Shown piece by piece: positions 2,455-64,000 of a stretch of 64,000 nucleotides of DNA. The first letter of the stretch is position 1; every line of letters starts with the position of its first letter. A program made the translations under genes and the position numbers. The notes under the pieces are model-generated. The model did no database searches, had not been told where the DNA came from, and worked only from the letters and a program-made list of their open reading frames with translations. The DNA is from Eledone cirrhosa (lineage: Eukaryota), in the NCBI GenBank assembly GCA_964016885.1, contig OZ024740.1:301816001-301880000 (forward strand), given 5' to 3'.

Positions 2455-3238
2455 TGTGTGTGTGTGTGTGTATGTGTGTATAATAGAAAAACCACGTTTC
2501 GTTTACATATGAAAAATATTTATTGCGCATCGCACTTTTACGCCCGTTTCGCAGAGGATTGGCTCAATTTGACCCACAGGAGTTATGGACCCGACTCCAG
2601 TATTGATCTGCTCTTTAGACGGGTTCATAACTGTTATGGTTTATCTTGAGCTAAATATCTGCTAAATGCGCGTAACAGGTCGATACGCAATAAATATTTT
2701 TCATATGTAGACGAAATGTCCTCGTTTTTTCTAGCATATATACTCTGCCTCTGCATAGAGTGCTTGATTTGGTCCCACCATCATTCTACACACTAATGTT
2801 TCTGGGTATTACCCTTCATCAGTACAGTTCAACTGCCAGAGCTAGTGAAAATATATATTTTCTAAAATATACAGTGACTCAGCTCTGTTTAGTTACCAAC
2901 ATAATAGCAAGAATGAAGGGCTCATTCTACTGACATGACTTTAAAAATGAGGCTTGTTTGTATAATTGCAAATGAATCGAATATTATTATTAATATTCCA
3001 AAAACTCAGATTACATGTATTGTATTCAGCCATGTATGGGGAAATTTATCTTTATTTATTTGAATGTGGCAAAGCCGGCCATTTATCGCCTGTATACAAG
3101 AAAGTGACTGGCCAATCTGCTGATATGCAAATCTGACTGATCAGCCAGTCTGCTAATATGCAAATCAGGCCGATCAGTAACTGTATATTTTAGAAAATAT
3201 ATATTTTCACTAGCTCTGACAGATGGCAGGTGAACAGT

Positions 3239-3288
3239 GAACTGTACTGATGAAGGGTTATACCCAGAAACCACAGTGTCTGCAGTTC
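3239..3288 (+). ncRNA. Type I hammerhead ribozyme, with a degenerate inverted copy at about 2788-2830
   Basis: gaactgta CTGATGA a-gggt-tat-accc-a GAAA ccacagtg TC tgcagttc; 8-bp stem I. Confidence 0.75.
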
Positions 3289-3769
3289 TGTTTACATGCC
3301 AACACAAGAGCAACAATGAAGGGCTCATTCTACTGGCATGGCTTTAAAAGTGAGGCTTGTTTGCATAGTTGCAAAGGAATGGAATGTTTTGGCAGTATTG
3401 ACCATACGGAATTGACCAGCTCTATCCAGTGGTGAACCTTCAAACCTGAATAAAAAATATATATGTATATATAACGAAGGAGGTGTGGTAAGGAACCATA
3501 ACGCACCAGAGTACTCAATATTTAGGGTAGTAGAGTGGGTAATAGGAACATTTTTAACCTCGACAGCAGAGCTCAAAGCCGTGGAAACGGATTAAATCTA
3601 GGGTAACCACAGTAACTAAGGTAATCAATACAAAGCAGAGTATAACTATTTAATATAGAAATCGTTTCTACAGGAATAGAACTGTGTCATTCGGGAGAAA
3701 TCATCAGGAGGCCGACTTGATGAGTTCTCCCGAATGAAGCAGTTCTAGTCCTGTAGAAGCCATTTCAGG

Positions 3770-6583: not shown

Positions 6584-7421
6584 CGGCGATGAATTAGTTT
6601 TGCGAGGTTTTTTATATGAAATCGTGTGTCGAAACAGATATTGTTATATTTGGGGAGGGTCATATTTGCGTAATATTGCCAGAATTAATAACAGAACACA
6701 CTCACTGTTTGGTTGGTTTTCGCTTCTCGCTGTCTTTTATATATATATATCTGCGATCTAACTTACTCGGTCCTCAATGTTGCCATTGACTGACCGGCGG
6801 TCAAAAATAATACAGATACAATATAGACAAACACATATATATATAGTTTACATAATTTACATAAATCTTTCGTTGCACATCTGCAACATCGTCAGTGGTG
6901 TTATATTCATTGTTCCTCCTGTTGTGTTGTATGTCTACGCCATTTTTTCGTACCCTTTCAAAATGCGCCATTGACGTACCCTTTCAAAATGCGACCGTTA
7001 CTTTTGGAAGACAGTTCCAAAAGTAGCGTTCGCATTTTGAAAGGGTACGTCAATGTTTATTTATAAAACTGGTATATATTGTATTTTGTCTGATGAAGGC
7101 ATACTATAATTTAACTTGGTATCCTTGAAAAAATGGCGTAGACATACAACACAACAGGAGGAACAATGAATATAACACCACTGACGATGTTGCAGTGTGC
7201 AACGAAAGATTTATGTAAATTATGTAAACTATATATATATGTGTTTGTCTATATTGTATCTGTATTATTTTTGACCGTCGGTCAGTCAATGGCAACATTG
7301 AGGACCGAGTAAGTTAGATTACCGATATAAAAGACAGCGAGAAGCGAAAACCAACCAAACAGTGAGTGTGTTCTGTTATTAATTCTGGCAATATTACGCA
7401 AATATGACCCTCCCCAAATAT

Positions 7422-7843: not shown

Positions 7844-8278
7844 GATATTAACAAATGGAAACTATATTTATAAAACCATATTTATTTCATTATACATATT
7901 TCAAGGATACCAAGTTAAATTATGGTATGCCTTCATCAGACAAAATACAATATATACCAGTTTTATAAATAAACATTGACGTACCCTTTCAAAATGCGAC
8001 CGTTACTTTTGGAAGACAGTTCCAAAAGTAGCGTTCGCATTTTGAAAGGGTACGTCAATGTTTATTTATAAAACTGGTATATATTGTATTTTGTCTGATG
8101 AAGGCATACTATAATTTAACTTGGTATCCTTGAAATATGTATAATGAAATAAATATGGTTTTATAAATATAGTTTCCATTTGTTAATATCGTATATCTAC
8201 TCCAAATACTTTGCGAGTGCTTTATATCAGTTATAAATATATTTGCTTGTTGTATCCCAACAATTTAAATAGAACGTT

Positions 8279-15842: not shown

Positions 15843-15874
<32 letters not shown>

Positions 15875-15876
<2 letters not shown>

Positions 15877-15905: not shown

Positions 15906-16232
15906 AGTTAGCGTGTATATATGAATGTATATATATATTGTATTTGGTAATACACTGTATGCTTAATTAAAGTTTGTTGAAAAAGAAGTAAGTGACATAG
16001 TCACTACTTTAAAACAATAGCGTAAGGTCTTCAAAATGCTTTTACTTAAGCATACAGTGTATATAGAAGATCCAAATACACTATATATAGAAGATTCATA
16101 TATACATCGCTATTTCAGAGCACCAATTCTAATTTTCAATTTTTGCTGGTCCGGCAACCGCTCTGTATAATCAGTTCCTGATTATTACTGGAATTCTATA
16201 AGAATCCAACATTCATAATTTTCACCAGACAA

Positions 16233-16296
16233 GGGGAGTGCTAAGCTCTGAGGAATACCAACAGTATGAAACAGAGATGTGTCAGCTTATCTCCCC
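16233..16296 (+). ncRNA. Extended type I HHR with canonical core, in a diverged monomer (about 15910-16300) of the 316-320-nt repeat family
   Basis: ggggag-tgc-taagct CTGAGGA atac-caaca-gtat GAAA ca-gagatg-tg TC agctta-t-ctcccc. Confidence 0.85.
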
Positions 16297-16853
16297 AGTG
16301 CTCTAAATCAGAATTGTTAGCGTGGTAATAAATAGCCGAACTTTTCAAGGGGTAATTCCTTATATGGGAAGATTGTAGTTGTCAAAACAATTGGTCAACA
16401 TTTCTTGTAAACACAATTAAGTCTTTCTTGGTGGTAGGTGTCCATTGGGCATTTGTAGCCCATTAAATTCTATATAGCATTGGCCGAAAACGCAACACCA
16501 GCTAAAAATATAATAGCTGCTTTAGACTCTAGGGATATCTTATAATTTGTTACCATTTAATTATTTATTATTTTTTTTATTTATAATCTCAATTTATTAA
16601 CCTTTTAATTTTATAACGTCCCACTCTCAAATTCCCCCAGAATTCTGTTTCGCCTGCTTTCTACCTAGCCTAATTTAATACACACTCGTTAGAATTTACT
16701 GTATAGAATTCACTTTCAACGCTTGAGCTCATAGTTCTACAGGCAAGTTCAGCGTCCTCCACTTCCCACCTACCACCTAGAAGGACTTAATTCTGTTTAC
16801 AAGAAATTTTGACCAATCCTTTTGTCAACTACAACCTTTCCATATAAGGAAAT

Positions 16854-16948
16854 ACTCCGTGAAGAGTTCGATAATTTATTAACGCGCTAAATATTCTAAT
16901 TTAGTCCAGAAATAGCCGTCGAAACGGCTTGAGCTCTGCCGTCGGGGT
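16854..16948 (+). ncRNA. Degenerate type I HHR; 3' halves of the same family at 55101-55215
   Basis: actcc GTGAAGA …aaatagccgtc GAAA cggct-tgagctc-tgccg TC ggggt. Confidence 0.5.
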
Positions 16949-17892: not shown

Positions 17893-18027
17893 GATAGATA
17901 GATATATACATGTACATATATATACACACATATATATATATATATATATAAATATATATATATATACATGTATATATATATATATATACACATACATACA
18001 TATATATATATACATATATAAATATGA

Positions 18028-18838
18028 GAATTGGAGCTCTGAAATAGCCCTATATATATGAATGTATATATAGTGTGTTTTGCAATACACTTTATGCTTA
18101 ATTAGAAGCATTTTGAAGACCGTATGCTATTGTTTTAGAGTAGTAACAGACTCACTGACTTTAATCTCAGCAAACAGGGGGAGATAAAGCCGACAAGGCC
18201 TTTTTTCTGCATTTGTTGATGCTTATCAAGGCTAACTACTCCCTTCCGTCTGCTGAGATCACTGATGTTATATTCTTATAGAATTCTAGTAAATAATCAG
18301 GAACTGATTATACTCTAAAACAATAGCATACGGTCTTCAAAATGCTTTTAATTAAGCATAAAGTGTATTGCAAAATACACTATATATACATTCATATATA
18401 TATGGCTATTTCAGAACTCCAATTCTAATTTTTAATTTCTGCTTGATTGGCACCCGCTCTGTATAATCAGTTCCTGGTTATTTACTAGAATTCTATAAGA
18501 ATATAACATCAGTGATCTCAGCAGACGGGAGGGAGTAGTTAGCCCTGATAAGCATCAACAAATGCAGAAACAAGGCCTTGTCGGCTTTATCTCCCCTGTT
18601 TGCTAAGATTAAAGTAAGTGAGTCTGTCACTACTCTAAAACAATAGCATATGGTCTTCAAAATGCTCTTAATTAAGCATAAAGTGTATTGCAAAATACAC
18701 TATATATACATTCATATATATATGGCTATTTCAGAGTTCCAATTCTAATTTTTAATTTCTGCTTGACCGGCAACCGCTCTGTATAATCAGTTCCTGATTA
18801 TTTACTAGAATTCTATAAGAATATAACATCAGTGATCT
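18028..18838. repeat. 320-nt HHR-bearing repeat: inverted copy (18028-18312) then about 1.6 forward units
   Basis: ctctaaaacaatagc recurs at 18313 and 18633. HHRs at 18166-18257 (-, TTGATAA) and 18517-18607 (+, CTGATAA). Confidence 0.85.
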
Positions 18839-18842
18839 TATC

Positions 18843-18945
18843 AGGTTAACTTTGCCTTTCATCCTTACGGGGTCGATAAAATATATTACCAGTAATGTGC
18901 TGGTTATTTGCTGGCCTTGTGCCAAAATTAGAAACAATTATTATT
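18843..18945 (+). mobile_element. SINE 3' half
   Basis: ggttaactttgcctttcatccttacggggtcgataaa…ggccttgtgcc…aattatt. Confidence 0.7.
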
Positions 18946-52910: not shown

Positions 52911-53411
52911 AAAATATTGTGACAAAACACACTTATGAACAAAATATGCTTAGACCCAACTCTCACGCGCATGCGCAGACGCACATTTACTCTCATATAT
53001 ATATATCGCATTTCGGCGGGTAGAAATTAGCGAAACGCAACTTCCATATTGTGCTGAGAAGCGCTCCATGGATATGAAGAAGATACCAGAGCTATAAACA
53101 TATATATATATATATATATAGATAGAGAGAGAGAGAGAGAGTGAGAGATGGAAAAGAATGAAACGAAATTTCATTTCTCACTCTTAGTACGGCTGATACC
53201 TAAATGTAAGTATGTATACGTACATACATATATGTGTAAAGACGTACAGTAGTATGTATATATAAACATACATGCACACATATATAGATGTACGTATGGG
53301 TTTACCGAACATTTATTATAATATTCGGTTTGTTTGTTAACAAATAGCCCGAATTACGCCGTACAGTGCTCGGCAACCATCGTCGCCCTTTTGTTCAACA
53401 CTGACACAGAA

Positions 53412-53454
53412 ACGATGTACTACTTTCAAGCTTATTAGCTATCGTCAGCATCGT
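53412..53454 (-). ncRNA. Minimal type I HHR within a rearranged direct/inverted repeat cluster (53147-54075)
   Basis: acgatg CTGACGA t-agc-taataa-gct-t GAAA gtag TA catcgt. Confidence 0.7.
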
Positions 53455-53762
53455 ATACCTTTCTGTCAGATGATTGACCGTACGTTTGAAAGTATATACT
53501 TTCCTTATGCATATTAACGGCTGAGTAGCATAATTTGCACATCGAGCGAGTTGGTCGTCCGGGCGCACCGACAACGATAAATGGAAAAGAATGAAACGAA
53601 ATTTCATTTCTCACTCTTAGTGCGGCTGATACCTAAATATAAGTATGTATAAGTACATACATATATGTGTACGACGATGGTTGCGAGCACTGTACGGCGT
53701 AATTCGGGCTGTTTGTTTACAAACAAACCGAACATTATAATAAATGTTCGGTAAACTCATAC

Positions 53763-54829: not shown

Positions 54830-55049
54830 ATAATAATAATAATAAATTTGAAGACTAATATCCAAAGAGGGCTCGATAAGGAGAATATATATGAAATATA
54901 TAAGAATCGTAGAGCAAATATTTATTAAAATAACAGATTAAAGTTTAAGCAAAGTATCGCTGCTTTCACCCTTAATGGGATCTCCTGAGTTTCAGAAGAT
55001 CCCGGCAAGGGTGAAAGCAGCGATTCTTTGCTTAAACTTTAATCTGTTA

Positions 55050-60360: not shown

Positions 60361-60944
60361 TTTCTCCTCCCTGTCTTGTGTTATTTTGTTTGCCTGTATA
60401 TGGGTGCGGTGTCTAAAAAATGGTTGGGGTAGAGGGGTTGTCTGCTGATGTTAAGTGGTCTCCTGTGTTTGTTATATTCCTTGTTGTTGTAAAATGTGGT
60501 TCAGGTTGGTGGTTGTTGATTGAATGGGGTGTTCCTGTACTGCGAGTATGGGTGTGTGTTTCTATGTGCCATGTTGGATTGTGGTGTTATAGGTGGCCTA
60601 CGTTGTTGGTTGTATCGTGTGGTGTGGGTTTGTTGTGTATTGTGGAAGCGAGAGTTGAGAAAATGGAAATTACCTTGCTGTCCCCTTGATATATATATAT
60701 TTATTTATTTATGTATGTACATATTTATTAGTATTGGTACACTGAAATAGCGATGTATGTATGAATAATATATTTGATGATATACTGTATATTTAATTTA
60801 AAATAATTCGAAGACCATTCTCTATGAATTTTTAAGTTGTGACTATGTTACTTACTTATTCTCAGCAAAAACAAAGGGGGGTAATTGACAGTCCTGTTTC
60901 TCGCTCAAATATACTATGCATGGATATATATATATATATATAAT

Positions 60945-62690: not shown

Positions 62691-63200
62691 TTATTCTGTG
62701 GTGACAGTCAAGTTTGCAATTTTCAACTGTAATGAGATGGGTAAATGTTGTGCCTTATATACAGTGAAAAGCGGCTACAGAATGCTATATTTGGCAAACT
62801 TTATTTCGACCAATCGGTGTGTAGTTTCACTGGATTACTAAAGCTGATTGGTTGAGCATGTCTAACGACTACTATTTGACCTTATCCATAGCATCAATTG
62901 TTTTGATATTTTTAGAAATGATGAAAATAGCATTTTCTAGTAATCATCACCATTAACATCACTTGTATTATTATTATTGTTGTTATTGTTATACAACAAT
63001 AATAACAACAACAACAGATACTTGTTCAATTAACACTTAACATTTAATATTCTACCATACTATTTCATTCTAATACCATTATAAATTTTAAAGTATTGTA
63101 AATAAAACGAGTAAATCAGACAAAGTTGGAATTCCTTTTATTAACATAATCTTCTATACACGATCATACACACCCGTGTATATTTATATATATATATATA

Positions 63201-64000
63201 TTAGAATTGGAGCTCTGAAATAGCAATATATATATGGATGTATATATAATGTATTTTGCAATACACTTTATGCTTAATTAAAAGCATTTTGAAGACCGTA
63301 AGCTTTGTTTTAAAGTAGTGACAAAGACGGCTTATCTCCCCTGTTTGATCAAAGTGAGTGAATTTGTCACTACTTTAAAACAATAGCTTACGGTCTTCAA
63401 AATGCTTTTAATTAAGCATAAAGTGTATTGCAAAATACATTATATATACAGACATATATATATTGCTATTTAAGAGCTCCAATTCTAATTTTTAATTTCT
63501 GCCTGACCAACAACCGCTCTGCATAATCAGCTCCTGATTATTTACTAGATTTCTATAAGAATATAACATCAATGATCTCAGCAAACAGGTGGGGTAGTTG
63601 GCCTTGATAAGCTTCAATCAAAGCGAAACAAGTCTTGTCGGCTTATCTCCCCTGTTTGCTGAGATCAAAGTGAATGAATTTGTCACTACTTTAAAACAAT
63701 AGCTTACGGTCTTCAAAATGCTTTTAATTAAGCATAAAGTGTATTGCAAAATACATTATATATACAGACATATATATATTGCTATTTCAGAGCTCCAATT
63801 CTAATTTTTAATTTCTGCCTGATCAACAACCGCTCTGCATAATCAGCTCTTGATTATTTACTATATTTCTATAAGAATATAACATCAATGATCTCAGCAA
63901 ACAGGTGGGGTAGTTGGCCTTGATAAGCTTCAACCAAAGTGAAACAAGTCTTGTCGGCTTATCTCCCCTGTTTGCTGAGATCCAAGTGAGTGAATTTGTC
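63201..64000 (+). mobile_element. Retrozyme-like 316-nt tandem array with a 5' inverted arm; runs off the window
   Basis: Predicted GUC cleavage sites at 63639 and 63955 (316 nt apart); no ORF; arm 63201-63325 is the reverse complement of 63363-63488. Confidence 0.85.
63577..63663 (+). ncRNA. Extended type I HHR with U3-A8 core; next copy at 63893-63979
   Basis: ctcagcaaacagg…ggcc TTGATAA gctt-caatca-aagc GAAA caag-t-cttg TC ggct…cctgtttgctgag. Confidence 0.85.

Follow-up and report, generated by a model that had tools for sequence, protein, structure and literature searches.

We searched the window (the whole 64-kb stretch of DNA analysed here) with a descriptor scan and with a covariance model of our own, and found five complete type I hammerheads that belong to one repeat family. 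The features are listed below, with the subfamilies of this family designated by letters.

15844..15875, no strand: a (TA)n run beside the outer 3' end of the 16-kb element, likely its insertion target.
15909..15971, minus strand: short inverted arm belonging to a subfamily A insertion; its end lies close to the 3' end that the family prefers, and the same geometry occurs in 144/255 loci.
15972..16295, plus strand: subfamily A unit of 324 nt with a C3-G8 core, the long arm; it stops just behind the ribozyme, at the start of another element.
16226..16301, plus strand: subfamily A type I hammerhead, with C3 at 16248, G8 at 16253 and G12 at 16268 (74.9 bits with our own covariance model).
16255-58/16264-67, plus strand: stem II of the 16-kb hammerhead, with A10.1-U11.1.
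16283, plus strand: predicted cleavage site of the 16-kb hammerhead, after C17.
18019..18313, minus strand: inverted arm of a subfamily C insertion; its hammerhead (18174-18251) has U3-A8, with an additional A preceding G12, and is privately changed at 15.2.
18311..18844, plus strand: forward arm of the subfamily C insertion, ~1.7 units; its hammerhead (18522-18600) has a private C3-A8 core and the extra A at 18566.
60725..60915, minus strand: subfamily H copy, truncated at its 5' end; H is the oldest of the sampled subfamilies and roots the trees, and complete relatives of this copy have U3-A8.
63200..63322, minus strand: short inverted arm of a subfamily B insertion.
63328..64000, plus strand: tandem 316-nt units of subfamily B, the youngest, with U3-A8 (hammerheads 63582-63657 and 63898-63973); the array continues beyond the window edge.

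The family is a non-LTR retrozyme, characterized by a type I hammerhead, units of 316-324 nt (GC 0.34-0.35) and Penelope-style inverted insertions. Dispersed monomers as well as tandem dimers and multimers are found in the genome, with tandem runs up to 6, and the subfamily B array at the window edge holds four ribozymes in the extracted locus (L031). The core residues U4, G5, A6, A9, G12, A13 and A14, the A15.1-U16.1 pair, H17 and the three helices are present in the family. No protein is encoded: among the 40 longest of 216 open frames from 233 loci, those touching the element extend into TA repeats or neighbouring elements. The organization of an autonomous Penelope-like element, with a reverse transcriptase and GIY-YIG frame between pLTRs, is likewise not that of these ~320-nt non-coding units. 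Rfam yielded a single hammerhead match, for one copy only, at 25.1 bits against a gathering score of 52 (RF02275, clan CL00010), and its microRNA matches in the window were rejected as microsatellite artefacts.

Non-LTR retrozymes have been defined previously, with cleavage and circles demonstrated in mussel (PMC7229834), and have been linked to pLTRs (10.64898/2026.07.22.740005). Like the metazoan elements described in these two sources, the present family consists of low-GC non-coding units of ~300 nt with one type I hammerhead each, occurs as dispersed monomers, dimers and multimers with predicted self-paired circles, and is numerous (the mussel family has ~5,000 copies). Unlike them, it has 86% U3-A8 cores, which canonical C3-G8 descriptors skip, head-to-head inverted arms in 144/255 loci and a ladder of ~14 subfamilies, and it is known here from sequence alone.

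The original prediction regarded the 16-kb insertion as a diverged monomer with a canonical core, sharing its body with the 18-kb and 63-kb arrays. The C3-G8 pair (16248/16253) was recovered by both the descriptor scan and the covariance model, and the body is shared at 78-84% identity. The core is canonical at positions 3 and 8 but carries A10.1-U11.1 instead of G10.1-C11.1; in the family, this pair is G-C in A1 and from D to B, A-U in A and A2 (the 16-kb copy included) and mismatched in H, and some A2 copies have U10.1-U11.1. Loop II has 5 nt in the 16-kb copy, compared with 6 nt in the U3-A8 subfamilies. The other core states had also been read correctly, namely U3-A8 at 63604/63609, at 63920/63925 and on the minus strand at 18229/18224, and C3-A8 at 18545/18550, whereas the positions assigned to them (18166, 63577, 63893 and 18517) are segment edges, 27-63 nt from the cores.

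The description as a diverged monomer did not hold. All 40 scored matches (of 1,687 candidates) were 96-100% identical to it, and the other ribozymes in 30 loci related to the 16-kb copy had C3-G8 in 31/33 cases; the 16-kb copy is a decaying member of an older C3-G8 subfamily (A). Its two-pair stem III, taken earlier for a family variant, arises by a substitution at 16279 that is near-private (present in 0/33 other copies, with one further copy carrying it found later), and stem III of the subfamily is a 4-bp near-palindromic helix. The C3-A8 core at 18 kb, also part of the earlier comparison, has no counterpart in its subfamily: of 40 subfamily C copies in which the 5' arm is intact, 37 have U3-A8 and this one alone has C3-A8; the extra A between 11.1 and G12 seen in both 18-kb ribozymes is the majority state of that subfamily. 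The C3-A8 core and the two-pair stem III of this window are private decay. It is very improbable that the 16-kb copy is a diverged monomer under selection at its own locus, for the host or for itself. Its intact C3-G8 core would fit such selection, but the copy is 96-98% identical to many dispersed copies, has a substituted stem III, is cut off by another element and has a ribozyme that folds no better than shuffled sequences (z -1.14), compared with far better folding in the subfamily B copies (z -4.73 and -3.62).

Directly behind the 16-kb unit lies a MITE-like element of ~600 bp (16303-16904) with 138-nt terminal inverted repeats (85% complementary), which likely replaced the 3' part of the unit. 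Long near-perfect hairpins were also observed at 6970-7054, 7975-8059 and 54940-55040, the first two identical and 1,005 nt apart.

We then counted cores throughout the genome (3.0 Gb), using a single pattern in four versions, one for each combination at positions 3 and 8, the extraction pattern having been made from ribozyme letters. The exact counts were 685 for C3-G8, 4,624 for U3-A8, 49 for C3-A8 and 50 for U3-G8 (phi 0.92), and reversed control patterns gave 0, 1, 0 and 1 matches; a few pattern matches belong to a related family, G. A Watson-Crick 3-8 pair was present in 5,309/5,408 cores, the copy at 18545 being one without it, and U3-A8 accounted for 4,624/5,408 (86%). The covariation of positions 3 and 8 that had been proposed was confirmed, and their independence refuted, since mismatched cores made up 99/5,408 (1.8%) compared with 23.5% expected. 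On the stem background of subfamilies B and C, 2,305 U3-A8 and 0 C3-G8 cores were found. Candidates numbered 1,687 for the 16-kb ribozyme region, 1,280 for the 63-kb type (98-100% identity) and 2,008 for the 18-kb type (92-100%). Contigs of a second sequence set (organism B) hold A-type and B-type ribozyme stretches as well, and were excluded as independent support.

We inspected 60 mismatch loci (30/49 C3-A8 and 30/50 U3-G8), 12 of which lacked an intact 5' arm or belonged to another family. The remainder were scattered over all subfamilies, as expected of neutral decay, with one exception: 10/50 U3-G8 matches are subfamily C' copies at six loci, three of which group at 95/79 and one of which also holds a U3-A8 copy. 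These U3-G8 copies likely share one source. A C3-A8 source lineage, for which three loci were candidates (L229, L230 and L234), was ruled out, the second arm having G8 in L229 and L234. The 3-8 counts go back to two events in the lineage and not to thousands of independent changes, and the 3-8 pair alone is therefore thin evidence.

Other hammerhead repeats were encountered in addition. Family G (L212, L289, L294, L303, L304 and L305) has an unrelated body and a similar ribozyme, and its two copies that were picked regardless of mismatch are U3-A8; U3-A8 may be common among the hammerhead repeats of this genome. A further family forms an inverted pair in the window (2787-2821, minus strand; 3225-3298, plus strand) with C3-G8 and with A opposite A at 10.1-11.1; L277 and L281 hold the same type. 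A third family at 53400-53469 (minus strand) has C3-G8 and a 4-bp stem II, with a similar motif in L028 near 987. A hammerhead-like motif with U3 and G8 scored 16.6 bits (L356:2713-2791, minus strand).

The order of the subfamilies was obtained from loci taken in genome order through a motif of the body (4,618 matches), by core state, and as relatives of the truncated 60.8-kb copy, with trees computed on the body only and the ribozyme excluded. In an 84-locus tree with a midpoint root, C3-G8 and U3-A8 parted at 98/91; the reading taken from it, with U3-A8 as the plain ancestral state and one reversion to C3-G8, was dropped once the tree was rooted on subfamily H. Family G was not used as an outgroup because its body does not align. 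With 131 of 184 loci usable and the root on H, the subfamilies form a ladder from H (U3-A8) through A2, A and A1 (C3-G8) to D, F, C', C, B0 and B (U3-A8), subfamily E grouping with D. U3-A8 was found in 17/17 subfamily H ribozymes, the 3-8 state changes twice along the ladder by parsimony, and a single clade for C3-G8 was rejected (p-AU 0.003; 61 rows, for a group named after the tree was seen). Two coupled 3-8 switches in the source lineage are likely. The median divergence from the subfamily majority falls from 0.051 in H to 0.039 in A2, 0.021 in C and 0.005 in B, with overlap in mid-ladder and some best-hit bias. It follows from the ladder and the falling divergence that the 16-kb copy represents an earlier stage of the lineage from which the arrays came, and that C3-G8 to U3-A8 was likely the direction of the last switch. 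The extra A before G12 in C' and C was gained and later lost along the same ladder.

We further analyzed changes at paired positions between subfamily majorities and within individual copies. Stems I and II differ between copies and remain paired, as had been noted. Among 13 subfamily majorities joined by 12 steps, 16/16 changes at paired positions keep pairing (9 two-sided, including the 3-8 pair, and 7 one-sided). The only other core change between majorities is at the free position 7, twice; U4, G5, A6, A9, G12-A14 and C17 are unchanged, which is partly ascertained. In contrast, the 190 private stem changes in 327/336 classified copies (9 dropped as truncated or misparsed) comprise 91 broken, 91 one-sided and 8 two-sided cases. 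Broken pairs were thus found in 0/15 majority stem changes and in 91/190 private ones (Fisher P = 1.6e-4; two-sided changes, P = 9.5e-7), a count that omits H, G and 34 unclassified ribozymes. Because both the subfamily labels and the extraction pattern were derived from letters of the ribozyme, paired majorities and an unvarying core are favoured, and the constancy of part of the core and of the stem III base is partly built in; the same subfamily order emerges from the ribozyme-free trees. In an alignment of 17 natural copies, 97.3% of 219 cells were paired, 9/13 pairs changed on both sides and the score was reached in 0/500 shuffles, with slid controls paired at 19.5-42.3%; these copies are kin, and the pairing score is not a probability. 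Because majority changes keep pairing while private changes often break pairs, the pattern indicates that selection acts on a few source elements and not on genomic copies. The earlier claim of selection on the catalytic structure therefore stands for the source elements, whereas the genomic copies decay.

Could such paired changes arise without selection? A reverse transcriptase switching templates might copy one hairpin arm onto the other, and recombination between coexisting subfamilies might move the 3-8 states as a block. At the step from A1 to D, positions 3, 7 and 8 and the length of loop II change together, toward the states of H, on a short branch, and inversions and junction artefacts are common in this family (12 of the 60 inspected mismatch loci had no intact 5' arm or were of another family). 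On the other hand, D retains stems II and III of A1, not of H, so that the exchanged tract would be tiny, and a cassette model still requires one original coupled change. Arm copying does not yield the 7/15 stem changes that are one-sided yet paired, and hairpin-templated repair would not explain the 3-8 change because this pair lies outside any hairpin. We regard an origin without selection as quite improbable; structural selection on the source lineage of the retrozyme, with two coupled core switches, appears likely and well supported by these comparisons.

What is selected might be a shape recognised by a Penelope-like protein, or one that stabilizes the RNA, with cleavage weak or vestigial. 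Imperfect cores have indeed spread: H without the 10.1-11.1 pair, C' and C with the extra A, some A2 copies with U10.1-U11.1, and C' copies with U3-G8. Insertions do not begin at the predicted cleavage site, the hammerhead fold is less stable than the predicted MFE structure by 0.7-8.7 kcal/mol in 17/17 copies, and Naiad elements spread without canonical hammerheads (PMC8557442). However, the tertiary 3-8 pair is Watson-Crick through both switches, the residues U4, G5, A6, A9, G12-A14 and C17 are constant between subfamily majorities (partly by ascertainment), and U10.1-U11.1 is reported as the best-tolerated mismatch (PMC3088659). A need for shape alone is accordingly rather improbable in our view. 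That cleavage by the ribozyme is needed for propagation of the repeat, as originally proposed, is no more than likely, given that cores with the U3-G8 wobble, the extra A or the 10.1-11.1 mismatch were amplified as well.

The insertions themselves are informative about the mode of spread. Two arms were head-to-head in 144/255 loci and tail-to-tail in 0. Outer 3' ends fell into two 20-nt bins, ~126-145 or 166-185 nt behind the cleavage site, in 349/399 cases, although some ends at 126-145 nt reflect BLAST stopping at an internal TA run. TA-rich flanks were found at 255/399 outer 3' ends and at 9/111 5' ends. Penelope-like elements show 5' truncation, partial tandems, inverted arms and microsatellite targets (PMC8557442), and all four are seen here. 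Unit circles are predicted to be well folded, 4/4 units folding better than 40/40 shuffles (z -3.5 to -6.9).

A young, very abundant Penelope-like family is present in the genome (69,320 candidates; many open frames of up to 713-732 aa among 144 scored places), and a fragment related to it scores GIY-YIG. In this family, the one Penelope-like family compared, 0/29 further loci share sequence or a related ribozyme with the repeat. At five loci (L076, L077, L089, L139 and L175), 5'-truncated Penelope-like reverse transcriptase/GIY-YIG fragments lie 19-147 nt behind the 3' end of the repeat on the same strand. These fragments were not taken as evidence of a partner: the one family followed up shares no sequence with the repeat, and a common TA target fits equally; a template-switch chimera is another candidate explanation.

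We propose, with a probability of about 0.7, that the 16-kb element is a decaying copy of an older C3-G8 retrozyme subfamily, whose source lineage likely switched its 3-8 pair twice and was likely kept catalytic by selection because self-cleavage is likely needed to produce the RNA from which new copies are made. Transcripts, tandem or read-through, would undergo self-cleavage at C17 and circularize as single units. In trans, a Penelope-like reverse transcriptase/GIY-YIG protein would prime at a TA-rich target, and reverse transcription would begin ~130-185 nt behind the cleavage site and continue around the circular template, from which monomers, tandems and inverted arms would result. New subfamilies would be founded only by sources with a ribozyme still able to fold and cut, and inserted copies would drift neutrally. 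Against this proposal, there are only two 3-8 events, one of which could be a cassette exchange; the imperfect cores that spread, the hammerhead's position above the MFE, insertions starting away from the cleavage site, the absence of shared sequence in the one Penelope-like family compared and the uncut Xenopus dimers also weigh against it.

Closely related core changes are known. The Cercyon Penelope-like elements of Schistosoma carry ~1,300 U3-A8 minimal hammerheads (PMC4209133), and like the present family they combine C3-G8 to U3-A8 covariation in a retroelement ribozyme, a high copy number and C3-G8 forms in the same genome. Their hammerheads differ: helix II is 7-8 bp long, helix III is missing, A9 is followed by an additional base, and the ribozymes lie in the pLTRs of coding elements; the parts of PMC4209133 considered here report no lineage order of the 3-8 states. 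In our family, to which no coding element could be linked, helix II has 4 bp and helix III 3-5 bp, unlike the minimal hammerheads of metazoan Penelope-like elements (long helix II, helix III absent or of 1-2 bp, extra base after A9). Natural U3-A8 covariation has been reported, with in vitro activity cited and U10.1-U11.1 listed as tolerated (PMC3088659). Both of these variants occur here, whereas those in that source are scattered examples, not successive states of one family, and the portion considered names insertions but none that places a base between 11.1 and 12. For the pDo500 cave-cricket satellite hammerhead (PMC2837043), selection was likewise argued from within the family, on the basis of compensated stems and a conserved core; unlike here, C3 and G8 are nearly invariant there, with no coupled switch. 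The portions of PMC2920678 and PMC6155905 considered hold nothing specific on a 3-8 switch. In the literature searched, we found no retrozyme lineage that switches its 3-8 pair, although subscription papers and supplements of the cited papers may list such cores. The element class and the U3-A8 variant were thus already known, and the ordered within-lineage series is the new part.

It is also conceivable, though unlikely, that the ladder records a ribozyme that was tuned and not merely kept. C3-A8 is strongly impaired, and U3-A8 is slower than C3-G8. The lineage would then have moved from C3-G8 to U3-A8 and tried the U3-G8 wobble and the extra A, so that cleavage slowed and multi-unit templates were left. 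Loci with tandem runs favour this idea in 39/138 post-switch U3-A8 cases compared with 3/74 for C3-G8, whereas the oldest U3-A8 subfamily, H, is contrary at 0/18 (age and locus clipping confound these figures); in the genome-order sample, tandem runs were found in 5/22 U3-A8 and 0/9 C3-G8 loci. If tuning were true, a slower ribozyme would be the better transposon, and searches with C3-G8 descriptors would have missed the bulk of the retrozymes of some animals.

A search for C3-G8 only would miss 86% of the cores in this family. Most animal retrozyme copies that have been tested cut poorly or not at all, as with the Xenopus retrozyme dimers, for which no in vitro cleavage was seen in 8/9 and cleavage in 1/9 (10.64898/2026.07.22.740005), and the present series bears on whether transposition needs the ribozyme. 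In ~5,400 predicted ribozyme copies of a ~320-base repeat, the two halves of a core pair have changed together, likely twice. The ladder provides a natural series of ~14 source ribozymes, one succeeding another, that includes two coupled core switches, a side branch with the wobble and a core insertion gained and then lost, and in which cleavage rate can be compared with copy number, age and tandem length.
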